NCBI GenBank assembly: GCA_017461385.1
Contig: JAFTXZ010000012.1
Location: forward strand, 10,022 to 74,021
Origin: Clostridia bacterium
GTDB taxonomy: Bacteria > Bacillota > Clostridia > Oscillospirales > CAG-272
Direction: 5' to 3'
DNA: 64,000 nucleotides
Shown here: piece by piece, positions 9,827-62,665 of the stretch
Layout: each line of letters begins with the position of its first letter
Numbering within the stretch: the first letter of the stretch is position 1
The notes under the pieces: generated by a model
What the model saw: the letters and a program-made list of their open reading frames with translations, nothing else
Told to the model about the DNA's origin: nothing
The model's database searches: none
Made by a program: the position numbers and the translations under genes

Positions 9827-10309
9827 TTATATTATTTTTGTATGGCTTGTAACCAATACCCCGTTGCTTGTATTTACGACTCCGTAATAGCCCTCATGAC
9901 CCACGCTCCCCGGATTAAATATATGAATTGAGCTTCCTTCAACCTCTATAATATCATCGGCAATTTGATGAGTATGACCGAAAAATACTGCATCGGCACC
10001 TAGGTCATAGGCTTTTTTTGCAAGAGCCTCGTATCTGTTGCTAGGTGGGTACAGATGGCTATGAGTTATTAGTATTTTTATGCCATCAATTGAAACCACG
10101 CGTTCATTTGGCACAGAGCCACAAAACAAATCGCAATTGCCCTTTACCTCATAAAGGGCGATATTTGTGAAATAGTCTTTTAGATAATTAAAATCAACGA
10201 TCCCATCCCCTAAGAAAATTACTGCATCAGTATTATTCTTATGAAGCTCAACGGCTCTGTACATTTTGTCAAGCTTACCGTGGGAGTCAGAAAAAACTAG
10301 GATTTTCAT
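9827..10309 (-). CDS. YfcE/MJ0936-family metallophosphoesterase
   Basis: Motifs KILVFSDSHG, LGDGIVD, GNCD, GHTH. Confidence 0.85.
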   Translation of the reverse strand: MKILVFSDSHGKLDKMYRAVELHKNNTDAVIFLGDGIVDFNYLKDYFTNIALYEVKGNCDLFCGSVPNERVVSIDGIKILITHSHLYPPSNRYEALAKKAYDLGADAVFFGHTHQIADDIIEVEGSSIHIFNPGSVGHEGYYGVVNTSNGVLVTSHTKII

Positions 10310-12288: not shown

Positions 12289-13224
12289 ATGGAAGCGAAA
12301 TCTAATGGCTTTGTTATGCTTACAAAATTGATTGAAGAGTTCAAGCTTATGAGCATTTACTCTCCAGAAAATCTTGCTGATATTAAAATCACTCGTGCTG
12401 AAATACACCGTCCCGGTCTTCCCTTGACAGGCTTCTTTGATTATTTTGACCCAGAAAGAATTCAAATTATGGGTCGTGTAGAAACAATTTATCTTGAAAA
12501 GCTCTCCCAGAAGGAAAGATACGAAAGAATCCGTGCCTTTATGGAAAAAAAGCCAGTTTGCATAATTATTGCAAGAGACTTGACACCTTTCCCAGAAATG
12601 GTCGATATGGCAAAGGAATTTAATATTCCTTTCTTTACCACCACAATTTCCACAAACAGCTTCGTTTCCTCACTTATCGCTTCTCTTTCAGTTCACCTTG
12701 CTCCTACCATTACGCGTCATGGTGTTTTGGTCGAGGTTTATGGCTTAGGTATTCTAATGCTAGGTGATAGTGGAATTGGTAAAAGTGAAACTGCCATCGA
12801 GCTTATAAAAAGAGGTCATCGCTTGATTGCTGACGATGCCGTAGAAATAAGCAAGGTATCAGAAAAAACCCTTGTCGGCAAAGCCCCTGAAATCATTAGA
12901 TACTATATGGAGCTTCGTGGAATTGGTATTGTTGATATTCGTAGAATTTTTGGTATCGGTTCTGTTAAGGAAACCGAAAAAATTCAGCTTATCGTTAAGC
13001 TTGAGCCTTGGGTTGAGGGCAAGCTATACGATAGAATGGGTCTAGAAAACGAAAATTACAACCTTTTAGGCATTGATATTCCATCCATCACAATTCCTGT
13101 TAGACCTGGTAGAAACCTTGCAGTAATACTCGAAATTGCGGCTATGAATGCAAGATTAAAGCTACAAGGCTACAACACTGCTGAGGAATTTAACAAAAAG
13201 CTCGAACAAATTTATAAAATGTAA
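12289..13224 (+). CDS. hprK: HPr kinase/phosphorylase
   Basis: P-loop GDSGIGKSETAIELIKRGHRLIADD and the signature region ...MELRGIGIVDIR. Start set at the ATG 6 nt after AAGGAGG. Confidence 0.93.
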   Translation: MEAKSNGFVMLTKLIEEFKLMSIYSPENLADIKITRAEIHRPGLPLTGFFDYFDPERIQIMGRVETIYLEKLSQKERYERIRAFMEKKPVCIIIARDLTPFPEMVDMAKEFNIPFFTTTISTNSFVSSLIASLSVHLAPTITRHGVLVEVYGLGILMLGDSGIGKSETAIELIKRGHRLIADDAVEISKVSEKTLVGKAPEIIRYYMELRGIGIVDIRRIFGIGSVKETEKIQLIVKLEPWVEGKLYDRMGLENENYNLLGIDIPSITIPVRPGRNLAVILEIAAMNARLKLQGYNTAEEFNKKLEQIYKM

Positions 13225-23511: not shown

Positions 23512-24249
23512 TTATTTCAAAATTAATCCACTTATCCATTCTATCAAATGGACGTTGCGGAAGAATGATACTACCATTGAAGACTCAATGGTCGCTTTAT
23601 CAAACACGCCTGGTGTTAATGGACCGACCAAATCCGTAAGGGCATACAAGCCTAGGCTTATTCCCCATAGAACCACTGCTGAAATTATAACTCCCATCAA
23701 AAGTCCAAGCAATCTATTTGCAGTTTTAACTCCGTCAAAGGCGGTTAGCTTCTCTAAAATTGGAACTAGTAGGCTTAAAACCACCATTGATACCGCAAAC
23801 ACAAGCACTAGCGCCAATATTGTACAAATTAAAGATGACAAAGCACCGCCTATATTGTCTCCTAACGAAGCAATAGCACTCTGCTGTCCATCCTTAAGAA
23901 GCTCAAAATCTGTGCTAAGCCTGTCAAGATCCACGCCAAAGTCAGCCAAAACACTGTTATAAAAATTATTCTTATCATCGCTATATAGCATCAAAAATAT
24001 GTTTGTTGTGTTTTGGTTAGATTCATAATAGCTAACAAATGAGCTTGTTACCATATCAACAATTACTCGGCGCATAAATAGGTTGGCTAGCATACCGCTG
24101 ACAGTTCTTTTTAGAATAAACGCCAAAACTACTGATATTACAAGCTTACAGGAGTTAAGCACGCTTCTAAAAAAGCCTGTTACTGTAAACTTGATTATAA
24201 TTATCGCCGCAACAACAACACAAGCTATATCAATAATGATATGAGCCAT
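23512..24249 (-). CDS. CvpA-family membrane protein
   Basis: N-terminal IDIACVVVAAIIIIKFTVTGFFRSV pattern and multiple TM segments. Confidence 0.6.
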   Translation of the reverse strand: MAHIIIDIACVVVAAIIIIKFTVTGFFRSVLNSCKLVISVVLAFILKRTVSGMLANLFMRRVIVDMVTSSFVSYYESNQNTTNIFLMLYSDDKNNFYNSVLADFGVDLDRLSTDFELLKDGQQSAIASLGDNIGGALSSLICTILALVLVFAVSMVVLSLLVPILEKLTAFDGVKTANRLLGLLMGVIISAVVLWGISLGLYALTDLVGPLTPGVFDKATIESSMVVSFFRNVHLIEWISGLILK

Positions 24250-24315
24250 AGCTTTCCTCCTTAATAATAAAATAAGGACTGTATTATGGAAGATTCAAAA
24301 TACAGTCCTTTTTAG

Positions 24316-25074
24316 TTACGATATTGCGAAGCTCTTAATCCAAGCCCAGAAGTCGTCCCTGAAGAACTTAAACAGGATCGTTCCATCTAGGATTGATTCC
24401 TTGAATACCTCCGGATAATAGCTTGCACCAAATTCAAATACCTTATCAACACCGAGACAAATTGCCATTGCAATAAATGCGGCAAGGATTGCGCCGATTA
24501 TTGCGCCAAGCAATATGTTCAAAACCTTAGCCATTGATTTTTGTGTTAGCTTGTTCAAAAGCACACCGATAATTACGAATAAGATCTCGGCAACAACAAA
24601 TATTGCGATGAAGGAAATAATAATTGAAATCAAAAGTGATAGCTGACCACCTAAAATTACAGTAAACTCATCAACCTTTGCAATATCTGCACTAAAATAC
24701 TCTCCTGTTGCCGTGTCGCCGACAAAGTATCTCCAAAGGTCGTCAGTGGTTTCCTTATCAAGGCCTGAAATAAGTAAATTTACAAACCAGTTAGGAATAC
24801 CCTCAAGTAATGTATATAGCTCATACGTGCCATCAGGAGCCTGAGTAGACGTTAAGAGATTATTTACTGTGTTTGTTGACCAATCTATAAAGAATGCATT
24901 ACTAATCACCTTAGCAAGTGGTGTACAAAAGATAATTGAAACGAGGGGGGCAAGCAACGTTTTTACAAGTGCCATTAGTGAACGTACAAAGCCACGTATT
25001 GCATATCTTAAAATGAAAAATACGCATAGCACGATTAAGACTATATCAAATACTAAGCTAACGTTAAAATCCAC
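24316..25074 (-). CDS. CvpA-family membrane protein (paralogue)
   Basis: N-terminal DIVLIVLCVFFILRYAIRGFVRSL pattern and multiple TM segments. Confidence 0.6.
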   Translation of the reverse strand: MDFNVSLVFDIVLIVLCVFFILRYAIRGFVRSLMALVKTLLAPLVSIIFCTPLAKVISNAFFIDWSTNTVNNLLTSTQAPDGTYELYTLLEGIPNWFVNLLISGLDKETTDDLWRYFVGDTATGEYFSADIAKVDEFTVILGGQLSLLISIIISFIAIFVVAEILFVIIGVLLNKLTQKSMAKVLNILLGAIIGAILAAFIAMAICLGVDKVFEFGASYYPEVFKESILDGTILFKFFRDDFWAWIKSFAIS

Positions 25075-56802: not shown

Positions 56803-58662
56803 ATGAAAAAAATATTTTATTCGCCAGTTATTAGGGCAATATTCCTAGTTATTATCTTTTTAGTGGCTTTTTTCTTATCGACAGTCTTAGCCACATTATT
56901 CACCGAAAATCTGACTTTAGATAAATATTCAACTGTGGCTCTTATTCCACTTGCAGTTGGCGCTATAATCATTATGGTGCTTGCGCTTGTTTTGAGAATG
57001 CACGTATCCTCTTTTAGGCACGCAAGTGTTGTTGAAATAGTAAAGGTTTCTGTAATTTCTGCTGGTGTTTTAGTGGGAATGCTAGTTTTACACTTTGTTC
57101 CTTACACCGAAAAGCAAGAGGATATCATAGGAGTAGATTGGTGCACACTCACCTTTTCATTCTTTTTTATGGCTTCTCTGTTTATCACATTTTTCTACAG
57201 AGCTATTCTTTCCATAAAGCACCATGTTAATTATAGAAGCAATGGAAACAAAAAGAAGGTTTTGATAGTGGGCGCAGGTGAGGCTGGTAGTATGATTCTT
57301 CGTGAAATTCAATCCAGCAATAAAATATTGCTAGAGCCTGTAGGCTTTGTTGATGACGATCCTTCAAAGATAGGAATGTACATTTTTGGCGTTAAGGTGC
57401 TAGGTGGTTGCGAATCTATAAAAGAAATAGTCGAAAAGCAACACGTGTCAGCTATTTTCATTGCAATGCCATCTGCCAGTGCTCAAACAATCAAAAAAAT
57501 CACCAGTCAATGTATTGACACCAAGTGTGAGGTTAAAACTCTACCTGGTCTTTATCAGCTTATGGACGGTGCTATTTCTGTATCAAGACTCCGTAACGTT
57601 GACGTAAATGACCTTTTGGGTCGTGAGCCTGTTAAAACCAATCTTTCAGAGGTTATGGGCTACATTGAGGATCAAGTTGTTTTGGTTACAGGTGGCGGTG
57701 GCTCAATTGGTAGCGAGCTTTGCAGACAGATAGCTACACAAAATCCTAAGCAGTTAATTATTCTTGACATATATGAAAACAACGCTTACGAGATTGAACA
57801 GGAGCTTAAGAGAAAGCTTCCTAACCTGAATCTTGTAACGCTTATCGCTTCTATTCGTGATAGTGGCAAAATGGACGATGTTTTCAAGACCTATCGTCCT
57901 GATATTGTATTCCATGCAGCTGCACACAAGCACGTGCCACTTATGGAAACAAGCCCTAACGAGGCAGTTAAAAACAATGTTATCGGTACATATAAGGTTG
58001 CTAAATGTGCAGATAAGTATGAGGTTAAAAAGTTCGTACAAATTTCCACAGATAAGGCTGTCAACCCTACCAATATTATGGGCGCTACAAAGCGTATTTG
58101 CGAAATGATTATTCAAGCCTTTGCAAAGAGGTCAAATACATGCTTTGTTGCAGTAAGATTCGGAAACGTTCTTGGCTCAAACGGCTCTGTTATTCCTCTA
58201 TTCAAGAAGCAAATTGAGGAGGGCGGTCCCGTTACTGTTACCCATAAGGATATCATCAGATATTTTATGACAATTCCAGAGGCAGTTAGCCTTGTTTTAC
58301 AGGCTGGTGCTAAGGCAAATGGTGGTGAAATATTTGTGCTTGATATGGGTGAGCAGGTAAGAATTTATGATTTGGCTGAAAACCTTATAAAGCTTTCTGG
58401 CTATGAGCCTCACAGAGATATCGAAATAAAGATTACAGGACTTCGTCCTGGCGAAAAGCTCTACGAGGAAAGACTTATGGCTGAAGAAGGTCTTACTAAG
58501 ACTGAAAATGACAGAATAAGCATTGGAAAACCTCTTGATATTGATGAGGACAAGCTATTCAAAACCCTCGACAAGCTTTATAACGAGGCATATAACGAGA
58601 GTGATGAGATGAAGGAGCTTGTTAAGGAGCTTGTTCCTACTTACAAAATTGATAGAAGATAA
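56803..58662 (+). CDS. Polysaccharide biosynthesis protein, CapD/PglF/WbpM-like membrane-bound NDP-sugar 4,6-dehydratase
   Basis: Four N-terminal TM segments and two Rossmann regions (VLIVGAGEAGS; VLVTGGGGSIGSEL). SDR catalytic context ...YGATKRICE... Confidence 0.88.
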   Translation: MKKIFYSPVIRAIFLVIIFLVAFFLSTVLATLFTENLTLDKYSTVALIPLAVGAIIIMVLALVLRMHVSSFRHASVVEIVKVSVISAGVLVGMLVLHFVPYTEKQEDIIGVDWCTLTFSFFFMASLFITFFYRAILSIKHHVNYRSNGNKKKVLIVGAGEAGSMILREIQSSNKILLEPVGFVDDDPSKIGMYIFGVKVLGGCESIKEIVEKQHVSAIFIAMPSASAQTIKKITSQCIDTKCEVKTLPGLYQLMDGAISVSRLRNVDVNDLLGREPVKTNLSEVMGYIEDQVVLVTGGGGSIGSELCRQIATQNPKQLIILDIYENNAYEIEQELKRKLPNLNLVTLIASIRDSGKMDDVFKTYRPDIVFHAAAHKHVPLMETSPNEAVKNNVIGTYKVAKCADKYEVKKFVQISTDKAVNPTNIMGATKRICEMIIQAFAKRSNTCFVAVRFGNVLGSNGSVIPLFKKQIEEGGPVTVTHKDIIRYFMTIPEAVSLVLQAGAKANGGEIFVLDMGEQVRIYDLAENLIKLSGYEPHRDIEIKITGLRPGEKLYEERLMAEEGLTKTENDRISIGKPLDIDEDKLFKTLDKLYNEAYNESDEMKELVKELVPTYKIDRR

Positions 58663-58665
58663 ACA

Positions 58666-58705
58666 AAAAATACAAGAGTGTCAGTAGACATTCTTGTATT
58701 TTTTA
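58666..58705 (+). terminator. Intrinsic terminator of the CapD-like gene
   Basis: Hairpin ATACAAGA-(14 nt)-TCTTGTAT followed by TTTTTT. Confidence 0.7.
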
Positions 58706-58733
58706 TCGCTTTTTTTATATTTGTCGAGACTTT

Positions 58734-58815
58734 GGGTGCCAAAAAGGCACCCTTGTCCCTTTTTGAGTTAATTAATTGTCAGCCCCTTGGAGACGAGGAA
58801 GTGTCATCTGTCTCC
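58734..58815. repeat. Cassette-end module copy R1 (82 bp)
   Basis: GGGTGCC-aaaaa-GGCACCC TTGTCCCTTTTT GAGTTAATTAAT tgtcagcccctt GGAGACGAGGAAGTGTCATCTGTCTCC. It supplies the last codons and stop of the 146-aa ORF. Confidence 0.9.
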
Positions 58816-59219
58816 ACAAACTTGAAACTATCGATAATCGAATCACATATTTTAACTTCCGCATTTTTTCGCTCACTTTGATACGTAGCCAACACTATTT
58901 TAGGCTTTTTTGCCACAACCCACAATTTAACAAACCATTTATCAGAAGTTGTGCCAGTTCCGTACAAAAGCGTCTTTCCTTCTTTATTAAGAAGTATTAA
59001 AGGCAAATGCAAAATTACGTTATTATTATCTATAAATCTTTTCGCTAATATACTTATCTGCTCATCCAATGATTTGTCTAAACAGAGGACGTCAAAAAAG
59101 GACATTGTTATTGCTCCATTGCCATTGGGATTATACAAAAAAAGATTGTCTTCATCCTCTTCTGCGCACCAATTGTTAGGCAACTTGTATTCTAAATATT
59201 TATTGTGGTTAGGCACCAT
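58779..59219 (-). CDS. Hypothetical protein (146 aa), soluble; C-terminal tail ...FVETDDTSSSPRG
   Basis: ORF with GGAGGG RBS 7 nt upstream of the ATG. No recognisable domain. Confidence 0.6.
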   Translation of the reverse strand: MVPNHNKYLEYKLPNNWCAEEDEDNLFLYNPNGNGAITMSFFDVLCLDKSLDEQISILAKRFIDNNNVILHLPLILLNKEGKTLLYGTGTTSDKWFVKLWVVAKKPKIVLATYQSERKNAEVKICDSIIDSFKFVETDDTSSSPRG

Positions 59220-59244
59220 TCATTATCCCTCCTAATCATACAAT

Positions 59245-59712
59245 TTAAGAACACCCGTCCCCTGTATTCATTTCTTCAATTTTCTGCACATCACATATTT
59301 TTGTGTTAGGGTAATATCTAATAGTGTAAGTTTTTCCTACTTCAACATCTCTCGCGTATAAAACAATGTATTCGTCTTTTTCTATCAGATAAAATTTAGG
59401 TTTACTGTTTCTTCGTCTTCCATTTCCGTCATAATCAATCTTTGAACTGGTAAATTCTACAACTGTTGCCTTTTCTTCGATATAACTATTACTAGAAACG
59501 TATCTATAATCTTTACAGCAAAGAGTAAACAAATTGGTACATAAAATACTTAATGTCAAGAAAGCACATTGGCAAACTAATAGCATTATTACACCATATT
59601 TTTTTCCTGATACTATTTTTTTTGCAAAGACAAAGCCCATAACAAATAAGAACACAAATAATATCATTCCCACCAATGTTAAGCAAAATAACACCCAATA
59701 ATTTTTAACCAT
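59245..59712 (-). CDS. Hypothetical membrane protein (155 aa), 2 TM + beta-rich C-terminal domain (DUF3592-like pattern); tail ...MNTGDGCS
   Basis: AGGAG RBS upstream. Two hydrophobic helices are followed by ...VVEF...Y...Y.V.GKTYTIRYYPN.., which resembles the DUF3592 layout (a weak call from memory). Confidence 0.6.
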   Translation of the reverse strand: MVKNYWVLFCLTLVGMILFVFLFVMGFVFAKKIVSGKKYGVIMLLVCQCAFLTLSILCTNLFTLCCKDYRYVSSNSYIEEKATVVEFTSSKIDYDGNGRRRNSKPKFYLIEKDEYIVLYARDVEVGKTYTIRYYPNTKICDVQKIEEMNTGDGCS

Positions 59713-59745
59713 TTCCTAACTCCTGAACGTATGGATATAGAGCTC

Positions 59746-59772
59746 GGAGACAGAGGACGGTTCCTTGTCTCC
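59746..59772. repeat. Inverted partial copy of the module's second hairpin (IR-left)
   Basis: GGAGACAGAGGACGGTTCCTTGTCTCC matches the reverse complement of 59940-59966 at 25 of 27 positions. It is followed by GTTTTTCTGTTT. Confidence 0.9.
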
Positions 59773-59886
59773 GTTTTTCTGTTTAATACTACTTTAAATA
59801 TTTTTCAATCTTTTTTTAGTCGTTCCCGTCATACGACTTATTTGTCTATCGACATGCCTTTTCGTATAGCTATATGTAGAAACGCT

Positions 59887-59966
59887 GGGTGCCAAAAGGC
59901 ACCCTTGTCCCTTTTTAGTTAATTAATCGTCATTCATTTGGAGACGAGGAACCGTCCCCTGTCTCC
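59887..59966. repeat. Cassette-end module copy R2 (80 bp)
   Basis: GGGTGCC-aaaa-GGCACCC TTGTCCCTTTTT AGTTAATTAAT cgtcattcattt GGAGACGAGGAACCGTCCCCTGTCTCC. It supplies the last codons and stop of the 212-aa ORF. Confidence 0.9.
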
Positions 59967-60568
59967 ATAAAGTGCTTGATTGCTGTATTTACAAAATGCT
60001 CTATTTCTTCCTGATATTTCTCGCTTTCCAAAGCATATTTTTGCGAATCTGATATAGAAAAATATATTATTCCATTTTTTAATACATTGTTGGTAAATAT
60101 GAAGATTGAACTCAAAGATTTTTCCACTTTGTCTTGATTCAGTTTCTTTGGTGCAAAATAGAATAACCTAATTCGACTTTTTGTAAATTGAACAAACTCA
60201 TGATATTCGGAATATGATGTACCAAACAAGCCTAAATCTTCATATTTTAAGTGAACATTTTTGTTGCGATCAACATACGATACTCCCGCCTCGCTAAAAG
60301 TAAGCTCAAATCTCTTTGTTTTAAGACCATTTAGAACTTCAAAGCTTCCAGCTGACATTATAACTGCAACCAATATCGCTAAAACAATATAATTAGTGCT
60401 TAAAACGCTTTGTCTGATCAAATTTATAACAAAAAGGCTTATCAAAAGAGGTATGCCCAAAAATAGCATCTTGGATATTTGGGCTTTCTTTATGGTTTTT
60501 CTGTTGTACCTAATTGCTTTTAAAATACCATTTTCATAAAATGAGCATTCAAACACCCTACCAGTCAC
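59930..60568 (-). CDS. Hypothetical membrane protein (212 aa), 2 TM + soluble domain; tail ...FMETGDGSSSPNE
   Basis: The ORF as tracked starts at a GTG with no spacing to a GGAG. An internal ATG (MLFLGIPLL...) is an alternative start. Two clear TM helices. Confidence 0.55.
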   Translation of the reverse strand: MTGRVFECSFYENGILKAIRYNRKTIKKAQISKMLFLGIPLLISLFVINLIRQSVLSTNYIVLAILVAVIMSAGSFEVLNGLKTKRFELTFSEAGVSYVDRNKNVHLKYEDLGLFGTSYSEYHEFVQFTKSRIRLFYFAPKKLNQDKVEKSLSSIFIFTNNVLKNGIIYFSISDSQKYALESEKYQEEIEHFVNTAIKHFMETGDGSSSPNE

Positions 60569-60818
60569 CTCCGTTTAGAGTCTCCACAAAATTCACAAAA
60601 TTATTTTTGAATAATCTAACCAAATCATTAATACACACCTCAGCTATCAATTCTATATGTTTGTAATCAATATTAATATTTTTAACATTATGAACAATTG
60701 CACCACCCAAATAAACCACATATAAAATCGTAAACTGTTTGAAGTGCTGGATGAAGTGGCGATGTTGATGATTTAGTTTCAGGCTTCGTTTCTGTTGGCA
60801 TGACAATCTTTCCACCAT
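60558..60818 (-). CDS. Questionable small ORF (86 aa); tail ...FVETLNGGDW
   Basis: ATG start without a recognisable RBS. His/Lys-rich N-terminus. The 3' end carries a degenerate remnant of the shared tail (GTCTCCACAAA). Confidence 0.35.
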   Translation of the reverse strand: MVERLSCQQKRSLKLNHQHRHFIQHFKQFTILYVVYLGGAIVHNVKNINIDYKHIELIAEVCINDLVRLFKNNFVNFVETLNGGDW

Positions 60819-60851
60819 TAAAAAATATAGAGTTCATACAATCGGGATCGA

Positions 60852-60930
60852 GGGTGCATTTGCACCCTTGTCCCTTTTTTAGTTAATTAATCATCATTCC
60901 TTTGGAGACGAGGAACCGTCCCCTGTTACC
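60852..60930. repeat. Cassette-end module copy R3 (79 bp)
   Basis: GGGTGC-attt-GCACCC TTGTCCCTTTTT TAGTTAATTAAT catcattccttt GGAGACGAGGAACCGTCCCCTGTTACC. The upstream ORF is out of frame with the tail. Confidence 0.9.
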
Positions 60931-60939
60931 TGTCTTCCT

Positions 60940-61281
60940 TCATTTTTCGATAATATTTTTAATATAGTTCTTTAACTTAAGATAGTCATTATAAAATATT
61001 TTGAATTTTATTTTTTCTCCTGTACTTAATTTCATATCAATCAAGCCTGCCACCTGTTGTTTGTATATAAAAGCTACAGGGACTGCATACCATTTGCATA
61101 CATAATACTCACAGGAACTTATTTGTTCTATTAGCTCTAATTAAATTGTAATATTGAAATGCTGTCAATCCATAACCAGATATCAAGCCAAACGGACTTG
61201 CTTTTCCTAAATTTATTTTTTCGTCTATGACTGTTTTTCCCTCTATAATTAAAAAGTCCTTTATTTTTCAAAAACCTTCAT
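60940..61281 (-). pseudogene. Degraded small ORF (about 110 codons, spread over three frames)
   Basis: The minus strand reads MKVFEK* / KDFLIIEGKTVIDEKINLGKASPFGLISGYGLTAFQYYNLIRAN...* / LELIEQISSCEYYVCKWYAVPVAFIYKQQVAGLIDMKLSTGEKIKFKIFYNDYLKLKNYIKNIIEK*. The frame switches fall near A/T runs. The shared tail (QVTGDGSSSPKE*) follows in yet another frame. Confidence 0.4.
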
Positions 61282-61318
61282 TTTTTTGAAAAATTTTTAT
61301 TTTTTCGAGTTTTTGGCA

Positions 61319-61352
61319 AAAAATGAGAGTTGAATTTCAACTCTCATTTTTT
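61319..61352 (-). terminator. Intrinsic terminator of cca (hairpin includes the stop codon)
   Basis: AAAAATGAGAGTTGA-atttc-AACTCTCATTTTTT; the minus strand has a T-run after the stem. Confidence 0.75.
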
Positions 61353-62665
61353 ATTTCCGTTGCTCTTTTTAGAAGCGCTTCCCTTTCGTTTGGTACCTTC
61401 TCCTCAATTACCTCGCTGAGAAGAGTACTCAGAATTATACCTATTTCTCTGCCTGCAGGAATGCCTATTTTCATTAAGTCGCTACCATTTACCTTAAGGC
61501 TTGCAAGAGAAAAGCAGCTTTCGTTTATGATATCGTTTGCCATTTCCTCTAGCTTATCAAAATGCTCCATATTTACAAGGCTTGGATTTTGCGCCAGATT
61601 GTCAGCACGCTGAATTTTTATAAGGTCCAAAAACCTTTTTTGACCCATTCTGTTAAGTCTCTTTTTTACAAGTACTCTATCAAGGTCGGTATGGGTATCG
61701 TGTACCTTTATAAGCCCGTATACTGCGTCCTTTGTAAAATTATCGTATTTATACCTGTTCAAAAAATCTCTTGCAATTTGGGCGCTTTTTTCATTGTGCC
61801 CATAGAAGTGTCCTACGCCATTTTCATCCATTGTAAAGGTATGAACCTTACCTGTATCGTGAAGAAGCATTGCAAGCCTTATATGTGGAATGGGTGGTGC
61901 GCTTTCCACAGCCACGGCTGTATGCTCAAGAATGTCGTAGACATGCCATTTATTATGCTGGTCAAAGCCGTTCATTTTTAGAATTTCCGGGCATAGCTCG
62001 CCAAGCACTTCGTAGCATTGCAAAATAGCGTTTTTGACATTTTTGCCAAGCAAAAGCTTTTCTAGCTCGACCTGTATTCTTTCCCCTGCAATTTTGTGTA
62101 GAAGCGGAGCGCATTTCACCATAGCTTTTTTAGTATTTTCTTCGATTTCAAAGCCCAAGGTAGAGCTAAAGCGAATTGCGCGCAAGATTCTGAGTGCGTC
62201 CTCCTCGAACCTTTTTTGAGGCACGCCTATTGCTCTGATGACCTTGTTTTTTATGTCCTCAATGCCACCAAAGTAATCCTTTACCCCCTCTTTTTCGTTA
62301 TAAACGAGGGCGTTCATTGTAAAGTCTCTTCTTGATAGGTCAAGCTCTAGCTTTTTAGTGAAAACCACATTGTCCGGATGCCTTGAATCTTGATATTCGC
62401 CATCTATACGATAGGTGGTAATCTCCACCAGCTCACCCTTATGCATAAGGGTAATTGTGCCGTGCTTAAGTCCTGTTTCCAGAACCCTTTCGTTTTCAAA
62501 AACCTTAAGCATTTCTGAAGGGGTTGCACTTGTGGTTATGTCGAAATCATTTATTTCTCTTTCCATTAGCATATCACGTACACAACCACCGACGCAATAC
62601 GCCTCATAGCCCGCTTCACAGAGCATATCAAGTGCTAGCCTAGCACCCTCGCTAATTTTCAACAT
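61337..62665 (-). CDS. cca: CCA-adding tRNA nucleotidyltransferase with HD domain
   Basis: Start at the ATG after AAAGGAGGTG (MLKISEG...). Motifs GGCVRD, DFDITT and ...RRDFTMNA..., with an HD region ...LLHDTGK... Confidence 0.9.
   Translation of the reverse strand: MLKISEGARLALDMLCEAGYEAYCVGGCVRDMLMEREINDFDITTSATPSEMLKVFENERVLETGLKHGTITLMHKGELVEITTYRIDGEYQDSRHPDNVVFTKKLELDLSRRDFTMNALVYNEKEGVKDYFGGIEDIKNKVIRAIGVPQKRFEEDALRILRAIRFSSTLGFEIEENTKKAMVKCAPLLHKIAGERIQVELEKLLLGKNVKNAILQCYEVLGELCPEILKMNGFDQHNKWHVYDILEHTAVAVESAPPIPHIRLAMLLHDTGKVHTFTMDENGVGHFYGHNEKSAQIARDFLNRYKYDNFTKDAVYGLIKVHDTHTDLDRVLVKKRLNRMGQKRFLDLIKIQRADNLAQNPSLVNMEHFDKLEEMANDIINESCFSLASLKVNGSDLMKIGIPAGREIGIILSTLLSEVIEEKVPNEREALLKRATEIKNES

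Follow-up and report, generated by a model that had tools for sequence, protein, structure and literature searches.

The window analysed here is a 64-kb stretch of DNA (positions 10,022 to 74,021 of contig JAFTXZ010000012.1, assembly GCA_017461385.1) from a Clostridia bacterium, in which a small islet of four genes and a pseudogene lies between a capD-like gene and cca (Table 1). The GC content of this interval is 0.31-0.35 compared with 0.40-0.46 in its flanks, in line with the AT-richness described in the initial annotation. That annotation had also reported three direct copies of an ~80-bp module, and all three are present: R2 and R3 are nearly identical (95% over 65 nt), and R1 is 84% identical to either. 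No further direct copy was found in the 64-kb window, and shuffled sequence gave no matches. The inverted 27-mer listed in Table 1 had been absent from the earlier reading.

Table 1. Features of the capD-cca interval, in window coordinates
Feature	Position	Strand	Description
Bidirectional terminator hairpin	58665..58704	.	Common to capD and ORF146; capD-side islet boundary
Module R1	58734..58815	-	REP-like 27-mer 58789-58815; stop-codon linker with TTAATTAAC; extended GC hairpin 58726-58759
ORF146	58779..59219	-	Orphan immunity gene by prediction; at other loci it directly follows a Tox-REase-9 toxin fragment
Tox-REase-9 gene end (..TGVLKLYD*)	59232..59260	-	Last 8 codons and stop; fused at GGACGG to REP-like ACAGG
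ORF155	59245..59712	-	Membrane-protein cassette
Inverted REP 27-mer	59746..59772	+	25/27 complementary to the R2 27-mer; 33 nt upstream of ORF155 start
Degraded 3'-end remnant of RayT (REP-associated tyrosine transposase)	59773..59878	-	Adjoins R2
Module R2	59887..59966	-	REP 27-mer 59940-59966; linker; extended GC hairpin 59879-59911
ORF212	59930..60568	-	Membrane-protein cassette; 208 aa from ATG at 60556
ORF86	60558..60818	-	82 aa from ATG at 60806
Module R3	60852..60930	-	REP 27-mer 60904-60930; linker; extended hairpin 60844-60874
Truncated pseudogene	60943..61134	-	C-terminal 64 aa of a 153-aa L025 gene; 94% aa identity; tblastn E = 2e-37
Non-coding stretch	61234..61302	-	cca-proximal islet edge; 84% identical to L028 7670-7738, ahead of the first cassette promoter

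On the ORF strand, the module consists of a 27-nt imperfect palindrome, a linker of ~25 nt, an A-run and an interrupted 12-bp GC hairpin. The 27-mer is self-complementary at 20 of its 27 positions and is predicted to form a bulged 12-bp hairpin, and the predicted fold of each module, on either strand, contains two separate hairpins with an unpaired linker of ~25-30 nt between them. The linker (..TGA..ATTAATTAAC) puts a stop codon in all three ORF-sense reading frames. The suggestion that every copy gives an ORF its last codons and stop is true of R1 and R2, which provide the final 11 codons and the stop of ORF146 and ORF212, respectively, but not of R3, which lies 10 nt past the true stop (60940-60942) of the truncated immunity pseudogene. 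Among the window cassettes, sequence identity is limited to the module and extends beyond the stop codon. The degenerate tail remnants noticed at the ends of ORF155 and ORF86 are real homologous pieces (59251-59267 and near 60558-60590).

All module copies found, in about six related lineages, are located 3' of a co-oriented ORF. Away from the arrays, the remaining ~61 kb of the window, the flanks of L019 and L021 (~18 kb) and L023 contained no REP or module. The reading as a generic dispersed REP, named initially as a possible refutation, applies to the 27-mer by family membership only; the whole module is confined to arrays, always on the 3' side of an ORF and in one orientation. Rfam, run in evalue mode on 58000-62000, returned no family, and a JGI metagenome scan with the central pattern gave ten matches, all of them unrelated sequences lacking the GC hairpin. 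Viral contigs searched with three patterns, and plasmid and phage collections queried with the whole islet, gave no match. A Crocinitomicaceae match from the genome scan was rejected as an unrelated terminator.

The GC hairpin was compared across 18 copies, in which 93.5% of hairpin positions are paired. One-sided changes keep the pairing on the ORF-sense strand only, via G-U pairs, in every case; unrepaired mismatches are found in some copies (L021b, L028a). The covariation test on these copies revealed no double compensatory changes, so the hairpin structure has no statistical support beyond sequence conservation. A T-run follows the hairpin only on the plus strand, antisense to the ORFs, where a terminator scan calls R3, and R1 and R2 are similar by eye. 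On the ORF strand there is an A-run before the hairpin and no U-tract after it, so the module hairpin is not a canonical terminator of that strand. A role of the module as sense-strand terminator was rejected for the same reason, and because true terminators are located downstream of it elsewhere: at several loci a canonical terminator comes directly after the module, and in L008 (3025-3146) a true terminator hairpin is found in place of the module GC hairpin.

The inverted REP and R2 enclose a 221-bp unit, 59746-59966, that contains the degraded RayT 3' end. This remnant aligns with L025 10660-10800 at 70% identity over 136 columns, with an alignment score of 95 compared with 29 +/- 5 for shuffles. 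Window positions 59839-59927 are 94.5% identical to L008 1691-1781, a segment that is itself 96% identical to the RayT 3' end. The remnant and the inverted REP together make up a solo right end of a REPtron. A tblastn search with RayT found nothing significant within the 64-kb window, and no target-site duplication surrounds the 221-bp unit, the flanks of which are GAGCTC and ATAAAG. RayT 3'-end remnants follow modules in L008, L007 and L025 as well as in the window. The right-end remnants in arrays are of fixed length, 97-98% identical and share one common starting point, which argues for active copying.

The 27-mer core, AGACAGGGGACGG, occurs as inverted copies flanking RayT genes in L025, L027 and L033-L035, and the same core is found around a further RayT, of 55% identity, that occurs in several contexts (L036-L040). 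The RayT protein scores 83.6 bits against NCBIfam NF047646 (REP_Tyr_transpos, cut-off 80) and 19 bits against the IS200 family NF033573 (cut-off 55), and contains a Pfam Y1_Tnp domain (E = 1.3e-16) and a C-terminal helix-turn-helix. Judged by these profiles and flanking repeats, RayT is assigned to the RAYT clade, rather than to the IS200/IS605 TnpA proteins, and the 27-mer to the REP family of a clostridial RayT, a Y1 HUH transposase. The core GGGGACGG agrees with the TIRYT repeat motif GGGGWSAS at 7 of 8 positions, with GGGGACAG in some copies, and the CGTC of the 27-mer is located inside its 3' arm (..CCTCGTCTCC). RayT genes or remnants lie inside the related cassette arrays, and Tox-REase-9 and trypsin-like fragments are found directly 3' of RayT.

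The islet ORFs differ in length and topology. The initial view that the bodies of ORF146, ORF155, ORF212 and ORF86 are mutually unrelated holds, as BLASTP finds no similarity among the four, and Pfam and NCBIfam searches of them gave nothing significant. The same annotation saw no recognisable toxin, recombinase or transposase; indeed the interval contains no intact toxin or transposase gene, but remnants of both are present, namely the RayT 3' end (~59773-59878) and the Tox-REase-9 tail (59232-59260). The latter segment marks the upstream limit of the ORF146 cassette (96% identical) and also supplies the tail of ORF155. The ORF155 cassette recurs at the unrelated L028 locus with 94% nucleotide identity over the 225 bp before the contig ends, and its homology begins exactly at the edge of the inverted REP (59745). 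The ORF212 cassette, leader and module included, is 88% identical in nucleotides to L028 7942-8683, at an unrelated locus; a homologue search with ORF212 returned three proteins only and no functional lead beyond genomic context. The last ~19 codons of ORF86 (60558-60615), which include a REP 5' remnant (TTTGTGGAGAC), share homology with a part of the L028 ORF212 cassette that there serves as non-coding leader and ribosome-binding site. TTGACA-N17/18-TATAAT promoters precede cassettes in L021, L008, L019, L005 and L028; the window itself has weak matches only.

Alignment of the capD-cca interval across relatives, the check proposed initially, reveals eight variants with different cassette combinations, that is gain, loss and permutation, all in metagenome assemblies, which can misjoin at repeats. 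The gene order of the window is repeated in three other assemblies and a partial fourth, with L001-L004 matching the window without differences. Between genomes, cassette identity is 88-96%: the ORF146 cassette shows 96.4% identity over 618 bp between species, compared with 80-81% for the flanking core genes, and the cassette of a 157/164-aa gene is 95% identical between species. The duplication of the latter in L007 ends exactly at the hairpin, and the ORF212 and ORF155 cassettes occur as a pair at an unrelated GH35/LRR locus in L028. Shared segments begin and end at a REP edge or where the hairpin stops. The compared loci yielded neither an excision product nor a precisely bounded empty site, nor did they show a target-site signature of a Y1 transposase, and the indels seen also fit ordinary recombination at short repeats. 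The sequence comparisons support reading the array as one of gene cassettes.

The functional context comes from gene order at other loci. In L033 and L034, a Tox-REase-9 fragment (E = 2.5e-17) immediately precedes ORF146. In L025, a full Rhs toxin gene is followed by an orphan tip with the core-end motif and then by a small-gene array carrying four modules, and the window pseudogene (60943-61134) is a truncated copy of the gene right after this orphan Rhs tip. No toxin-adjacent link was seen for ORF155, ORF212 or ORF86. The capD-cca interval accordingly appears to be an islet of orphan immunity genes derived from Rhs-type polymorphic-toxin arrays, with immunity predicted from gene order for two of the five genes. 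The initial statement that the array fits no described system is superseded, because the 27-mer falls in a RayT REP family of Clostridia and the ORFs in polymorphic-toxin immunity arrays.

The explanation favoured here, with somewhat more than even confidence, is that small accessory-gene cassettes have their constant 3' end in the module, a BIME-like, non-coding mosaic, and that the islet is composed of orphan immunity genes. The REPs and modules would act as joints for cassette insertion, deletion and permutation, either through the action in trans of RayT on REP hairpins of single-stranded DNA, or through RecA-type recombination between the repeated blocks of 60-120 bp, or through both. In mRNA, the linker would end the translation frame of whichever ORF is joined to it, and the stem-loops may serve as 3' structures; on the opposite strand, the hairpin with its T-run may stop antisense transcription. 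A bolder proposal, possible rather than probable, is that RayT, REPs and module together make up a dedicated system of Gram-positive gut anaerobes for the capture and shuffling of toxin-immunity cassettes. Such a system would be an analogue of integrons or rAID clusters operating via a single-strand HUH transposase, and would assemble islets of orphan immunity genes at neutral sites of the chromosome and inactivate orphan toxin genes through removal of their 5' parts.

Alternatively, the module may be a passive shared 3' UTR, a conserved tail or terminator inherited with the cassettes and moved by homologous recombination only, in which the REP is incidental and RayT has no role. The repeated blocks are long enough for RecA-type recombination, the canonical terminators behind the module and the substitution in L008 3025-3146 suit a tail of this kind, and no junction shows a visible transposase signature. 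This explanation is nevertheless unlikely, given that RayT genes and the fixed-length right-end remnants appear repeatedly within the same arrays, that segment edges fall at REP edges and not at random points inside the repeats, and that the ORF-strand hairpin has no U-tract.

It is also conceivable, with quite low probability, that the module is an autonomous unit of MITE or REPIN type with repeated insertion at the 3' ends of genes, irrespective of the cassettes; this corresponds to the second option of the initial annotation, a small element with a strong insertion preference. Y1 transposases leave no target duplication, and none is seen at 59746-59966, a unit with 27-nt terminal inverted repeats and no coding capacity; units of module and RayT right end are found in L008, L007 and L025 too. 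Against independent insertion, ORF146, ORF212 and the 157/164-aa gene each keep their module from one species or locus to another, no gene was seen with a module at one locus and without it at a second, and R1 and R3 have no inverted partner.

Very doubtful is the proposal that the modules are attC-type sites for a tyrosine or serine recombinase encoded elsewhere. Low GC content and unrelated co-oriented ORFs, each followed by the same repeat, would suit it, as would the similar look of the Bacteroidales rAID-1 arrays, which carry a XerD-like recombinase. The module folds into two separate hairpins, however, instead of one attC-like imperfect palindrome, and its ends have no RYYYAAC or GTTRRRY core sites; only AGTTAATT resembles a core, with one mismatch, and it lies mid-module with no inverse partner. 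The attC reading of the module was ruled out by this fold and the absent core sites. None of about ten arrays has an integrase beside it, and no integrase or recombinase domain was detected within 10 kb, in the islet ORFs, or in 30 further window ORFs, all located outside 25.9-30 kb and 43.4-46.4 kb. Cassettes at related loci, moreover, have their own TTGACA-N17-TATAAT promoters. Of the recombination-site-bounded gene cassettes proposed in the initial annotation, the part that stands is that the module marks the 3' end of exchangeable cassettes; an integron-type site does not agree with the fold, core sites, promoters and missing integrase.

A phase-variable switch, in which the 27-nt inverted repeats 59746-59772/59940-59966 flank an invertible 167-bp segment, is scarcely credible. 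The length and spacing of the repeats are typical of invertons, and the hairpin and T-run make a good terminator only opposite the ORF strand, so that the flipped segment would terminate ahead of ORF155. It was rejected because no copy at any locus has the opposite orientation and the segment is accounted for as a RayT remnant; the four assemblies of the strain are identical, no invertase was found, and R1 and R3 are without an inverted partner. Plain tandem duplication, with the ORFs as diverged paralogues that kept a conserved tail, has one true case at a related locus (the 148-aa and 164-aa genes of L007) and is practically negligible for the window, where the ORFs lack BLASTP similarity, differ in length and topology, and share identity limited to the module and running on past the stop codon.

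If the preferred reading of a constant 3' cassette end is followed, its significance lies in tying RayT-family REPs to a concrete role, as joints of horizontally exchanged immunity cassettes, both within Rhs toxin arrays and in an orphan islet apart from them. RAYTs are commonly seen as domesticated genes, present in a single copy and limited to the dispersal of short REPs, and the host benefit of REPs is still debated. If the link is causal, it would reveal by what means Gram-positive gut bacteria build up a defence against the toxins of their neighbours, as a second, mechanistically different solution beside the recombinase-associated immunity arrays of Bacteroidales, and REPs would gain a function in genome plasticity. 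In practice, the module could be used as a sequence tag when clostridial MAGs are searched for immunity genes that lack annotation.

Classical REPs occur as hundreds of scattered copies, whereas the copies described here are clustered in toxin/immunity arrays. REP/BIME elements and REPtrons/TIRtrons with RAYT/TIRYT Y1 transposases (Nunvar 2010, PMC2817692; Di Nocera 2013, PMC3733652; Quentin 2018, PMC6006769) are among the described systems that come nearest to the present one. Both have short imperfect palindromes that form inverted pairs and clusters, in most cases a short distance behind ORFs, and the same palindrome flanking a RayT gene with a C-terminal helix-turn-helix domain; composites of a REP and an unrelated stem-loop have been described in Pseudomonas, and the core is near the TIRYT repeat motif. 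In contrast to those systems, the REPs here are joined to an unvarying stop-codon linker and GC hairpin, in many cases run into the 3' end of an ORF in a single reading frame, and delimit protein-coding cassettes, and RayT appears mobile and multi-context. The host is clostridial, and Firmicutes/Clostridia are not mentioned in the comparative REP survey (PMC3733652). The combination is that of REP/BIME-RayT elements joined with orphan immunity arrays, both known separately; no literature linking REPs to orphan immunity or Rhs was found.

Ross et al. (bioRxiv 10.1101/471110) described the recombinase-associated acquired interbacterial defence clusters (rAID-1) of Bacteroidales. Like the arrays studied here, these are low-GC arrays of co-oriented orphan immunity genes with repetitive intergenic sequences, subject to between-species horizontal transfer in the gut community. 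Here, however, no array has a XerD-like recombinase, the repeats are built on REPs and have a Y1 HUH transposase linked to them, the toxins belong to the Rhs and Tox-REase types of Gram-positive bacteria rather than T6SS effectors, and the islet is small. Rhs/CDI polymorphic toxin loci carry orphan toxin-tip and immunity cassettes (Poole 2011, PMC3150448; Zhang 2012, PMC3482391), and the latter work describes the exchange of toxin-coding cassettes via recombination. L025 follows this pattern with its full Rhs gene, its orphan tip keeping the core-end motif and its small-gene array; the differences are the constant module at the cassette 3' end, the interleaved REPs and RayT, and the occurrence of cassettes between core genes, away from toxin genes.

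Integron cassettes with attC sites, such as the Vibrio VCR repeats, have in common with the present arrays the unrelated ORFs each with the same repeat and the turnover at a fixed chromosomal site; the fold, core sites, IntI and attI are absent here, and the cassettes have their own promoters. In the dRS3 mosaics of Neisseria, intergenic blocks lie between short inverted repeats of the REP type; the blocks cluster close to variable surface and toxin loci and are believed to favour recombination. No transposase is known to be associated with dRS3. These elements correspond to the CGTC-1 REPs and are clustered (PMC3733652). Their sequences and host are unrelated to those described here, and the Neisseria blocks are non-coding spacers, whereas the present modules form the ends of coding cassettes.

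There is good support for the module as a constant 3′ end shared by cassettes (leader, ORF and module) that derive from polymorphic-toxin immunity arrays and are exchanged horizontally. The initial annotation had described three direct copies of ~80 bp, R1 to R3, and all three were confirmed where it had placed them (first table). R2 and R3 share 95% identity over the 65 nt compared, and R1 is about 84% identical to either. Its inventory was incomplete in that an inverted 27-mer at 59746-59772, complementary to the 27-mer of R2 at 25 of 27 positions, had been overlooked. Searches with the 27-mer and the central 30-mer, with which a profile search concurs, found no further module copy in the 64-kb window, and neither probe matched shuffled sequence. 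The AT-richness reported for the interval was borne out (GC 0.31-0.35 versus 0.40-0.46 in the flanks). Three independent metagenome assemblies reproduce the gene order of the window with 99.96-100% identity, and a fourth assembly has a shorter contig that stops inside ORF155. Metagenome assemblies or MAGs are the source of all sequences used.

Coordinates of module copies, REP-fused ORF tails and sigma/DUF4367 gene pairs (L numbers denote loci or contigs of related genomes)
Feature	Locus	Position	Remark
Module R1	window	58734-58815	direct copy, read on minus strand
Module R2	window	59887-59966	direct copy, read on minus strand
Module R3	window	60852-60930	direct copy, read on minus strand
REP-fused ORF tail	window	58779-58815
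REP-fused ORF tail	window	59245-59267
REP-fused ORF tail	window	59930-59966
REP-fused ORF tail	L008	860-893
REP-fused ORF tail	L025	9737-9750
REP-fused ORF tail	L025	15425-15461
REP-fused ORF tail	L021	12724-12765
REP-fused ORF tail	L019	~12830-12880
Sigma/DUF4367 pair	L007	1362-2584
Sigma/DUF4367 pair	L029	4434-5656
Sigma/DUF4367 pair	L031	591-1813

Read on the minus strand, that of the ORFs, the module comprises an imperfect palindrome, GGAGACAGGGGACGGTTCCTCGTCTCC, a linker, AAAGGRNTGAYRATTAATTAAC, and A5-6 followed by GGGAC-AA-GGGTGCC-TTTT-GGCACCC-N3-GTYTC, and is predicted to fold into two separate hairpins. The linker carries stops in all three ORF-strand frames in R1, R2 and R3 alike. 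The earlier claim that the module supplies the ORF ends holds for ORF146 and ORF212, whose last 11 codons (ETxDxSSSPxx) and stop come from R1 and R2, and fails for R3, where the true-frame stop of the gene ahead lies 10 nt short of the module. All module copies found sit directly 3′ of a co-oriented ORF, and in 11 of the 16 tabulated copies the stop of an ORF of 146 aa or more falls in the interval from 70 nt ahead of the TTAATTAAC motif to 1 nt past it. Wherever an ORF runs into the REP, the same frame is used (ACA GGG GAC, read T-G-D), giving tails such as ETGDGSSSP; about 8 independent cases use this frame and none the other two, all three REP frames being open. This bias possibly reflects selection for a harmless acidic, serine-rich tail.

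The GC hairpin was rejected as a canonical terminator of the ORFs because the T-run that follows it is present only on the plus strand, antisense to them. Pairing is kept at 93.5% of positions in 18 copies from several genomes; no compensatory double change occurs among these, so that support for the structure comes solely from sequence conservation. One-sided changes, which yield G-U pairs, preserve pairing on the ORF strand only, and the module region has no match in Rfam. A variant module in L008 (3025-3146) keeps the REP and the TTAATTAAC linker, with the GC hairpin replaced by a bidirectional terminator (a perfect A-run/14-bp stem/T-run), and L007 (4618-4739) has two type-2 REPs in its place; different stem-loops are thus tolerated in the slot after the linker.

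The palindrome of the module is, with good support, a REP of the type associated with tyrosine transposases of the RayT family (REP-associated tyrosine transposases). Two variants of the 27-mer core, AGACAGGGGACGG, were seen, type 1 (..GGTTCCTCGTCTCC) and type 2 (..GGTGGTGTGTCTTC), and in the sequences scanned the core is confined to small-ORF arrays. In L025, L027 and L033-L035 the palindromes stand in inverted orientation on both sides of a gene for a 250-aa protein with a Y1_Tnp domain and a C-terminal helix-turn-helix. This protein scores 83.6 bits against NF047646 (NCBIfam, REP-associated tyrosine transposase; cut-off 80) and stays below the cut-off of the IS200 model. It has more than 7,800 homologues (E ≤ 1e-20); the few for which a source is named belong to clostridia, and some bear the name RayT. 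One member, P0221 (L036-L040), is 55% identical to the 250-aa protein and is flanked by AAGACAGGGGACGGTTCTCTGTCTT. REPtrons (a RayT gene flanked by its own REPs), TIRtrons, RAYT-like proteins with a C-terminal helix-turn-helix, the GGGGWSAS repeat motif and composite elements in which a REP is joined to an unrelated stem-loop are all known from the literature (PMC3733652, PMC6006769). P0221 lies, with identical protein sequence and with its own REPs, in at least three unrelated contexts, beside NUDIX, IS110 transposase and Apyc1-like genes, and was found in 337 blocks of the collection, most of them on contigs of very small size. A REPtron that is mobile and multi-copy, not a single domesticated gene, is suggested by this.

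Pieces of RayT genes also lie beside the modules. A unit of ~120 bp, comprising the 3′-terminal ~80 nt of the RayT gene together with the right-hand REP, is present twice in L025 and three times in L008 at 96-98% identity and with a constant start point, usually directly after a module; L007 has a shorter piece. Window positions 59746-59878 are a degraded form of this unit (70% identity; alignment score 95 versus 29 ± 5 for shuffles), and hence the remnant together with R2 (59746-59966) is a gutted REPtron end. The 27-nt inverted repeats are therefore explained and an invertible switch is unnecessary; no flipped-orientation copy was found among all copies. In L008 (24-242), two tandem ~100-120-bp right-end units, 99% identical to each other, precede the first cassette. 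The orthologous islet in a further species, L019 (~12640-12960), has a RayT N-terminus cut off by a REP (MSRQPRTMSKTGTYHIMLMGINQ, then GETRNGSSPP) and, beside a terminator-like hairpin, a second capD 3′ end that is oriented like capD itself and thus antisense to the islet ORFs; taken together, the two look like the trace of an older rearrangement at the site.

In a scan of one genome per species, the central pattern was limited to two clostridial MAGs of roe deer and goat gut origin. No true module copy emerged from the scans of JGI metagenomes and of viral sequences, and plasmid and phage collections had no match to the islet. A neighbouring-protein search added copies in L021, L025, L028, L029-L032 and L033/L034, and from these and further loci the turnover of the capD-cca interval can be read (second table).

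Contents of the capD-cca interval, in the order from cca to capD (numbers are protein lengths in aa)
Locus	Contents
Window	pseudo-153, 86, 212, 155, 146
L021	157, 146
L029	anti-sigma, sigma, 88, 220, 187, 146
L031/L032	anti-sigma, sigma, 205, 148, 146
L007	anti-sigma, sigma, 164, 220, 148
L019/L020	362, truncated RayT, a different 146-aa gene
L023	zinc-ribbon gene only; without REP or module

Over 618 bp, the ORF146 cassette (58645-59260) and its counterpart in L021 share 96.4% identity, against about 80-81% for ftsZ, capD, cca and ligA; identity changes sharply at the capD stop/terminator on one side and the REP-like junction on the other. L021 and L007 have the 157/164-aa cassette in common at 95% identity, and within L007 part of it is duplicated, the duplication reaching precisely to the end of the hairpin. 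L028, from another genome, has GH35 and LRR genes, after which come a promoter, a REP, an ORF212 homologue (88%) with module, a 129-aa gene with module and an ORF155 homologue (94%), and homology to the window starts exactly at the REP edges. In related loci, cassettes are equipped with TTGACA-N17/18-TATAAT promoters of their own. Several islet variants begin, on the cca side, with an ECF-type sigma factor and a DUF4367 partner that is likely an anti-sigma factor, and in L025 (1111-2339) a sigma-factor gene pair of similar layout is found a short way upstream of the Rhs toxin locus; the sigma/DUF4367 pair may regulate the array or be a fellow traveller.

From gene order, the islet genes are predicted immunity-type cassettes. 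L025 encodes, in order, a 2,164-aa Rhs protein, a 92-aa gene, REPs, RayT and a small-ORF array with four modules. One member of this array, a 237-aa ORF, is an orphan toxin tip because it retains the Rhs core-end (75% identity to Rhs residues 1937-1997; TIGR03696, E = 2e-11), and the C-terminal 64 aa of the next gene (153 aa) recur at 60943-61134 of the window with 94% identity. L033 and L034 have RayT and its REP, then a 70-aa Tox-REase-9 fragment (E = 2.5e-17, profile positions 22-88), then ORF146 with module, and the DNA of this stretch matches the window at 95.6% identity. In the window, the 29 nt that precede ORF146 (59232-59260) represent the final codons of that toxin gene, joined at GGACGG to a REP-like ACAGG. 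ORF155, ORF212 and ORF86 gave no toxin-gene link and no family match. A RayT/REP unit lies directly 5′ of a toxin domain that is truncated at its N-terminus, a Tox-REase-9 fragment in L034 (861-1090) and a trypsin-like fragment in L025 (10780-11246), each followed by a presumed immunity gene; it looks as if orphan toxins were disarmed and immunity genes spared, by REPtron insertion or REP-mediated deletion.

A cassette 3′ end that is also a RayT-type REP is, as a combined explanation, the one we hold to be probable, with movement that would proceed by RayT acting in trans on REP hairpins, by homologous recombination between repeated blocks, or by both. A diagnostic transposase signature was seen at none of the junctions. 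A purely passive shared tail, with cassettes moved by recombination alone, is given a minor share of the probability. Integron-type recombination is unlikely because the fold is wrong, core sites are lacking, no integrase was found beside the arrays or among the window ORFs scanned, and the cassettes carry promoters. Tandem paralogy of the islet ORFs was excluded at the BLASTP level. The closest known systems are REP/BIME-RAYT elements, the arrays of orphan cassettes at Rhs loci and, in functional terms, the rAID-1 immunity arrays known from Bacteroidales, in which repetitive intergenic sequences and low GC go with a XerD-like recombinase. A literature search found nothing that ties REPs or RayT to immunity cassettes.

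Some further genes were noted. A 401-aa reverse transcriptase (RVT_1) is encoded at 18538-19743 of L025, ~1.4 kb past the last co-oriented cassette of the Rhs array. In L021 (18560-21917), from one related species, genes for a phage-type integrase, Peptidase_M78 and an HTH regulator follow just past the Peptidase_C39_2 gene, which is conserved; they are some 5 kb away from the islet, do not adjoin the array and look like a separate integrated element. In the window, two neighbouring paralogues with a Colicin V production (CvpA) domain lie at 23512-25074.
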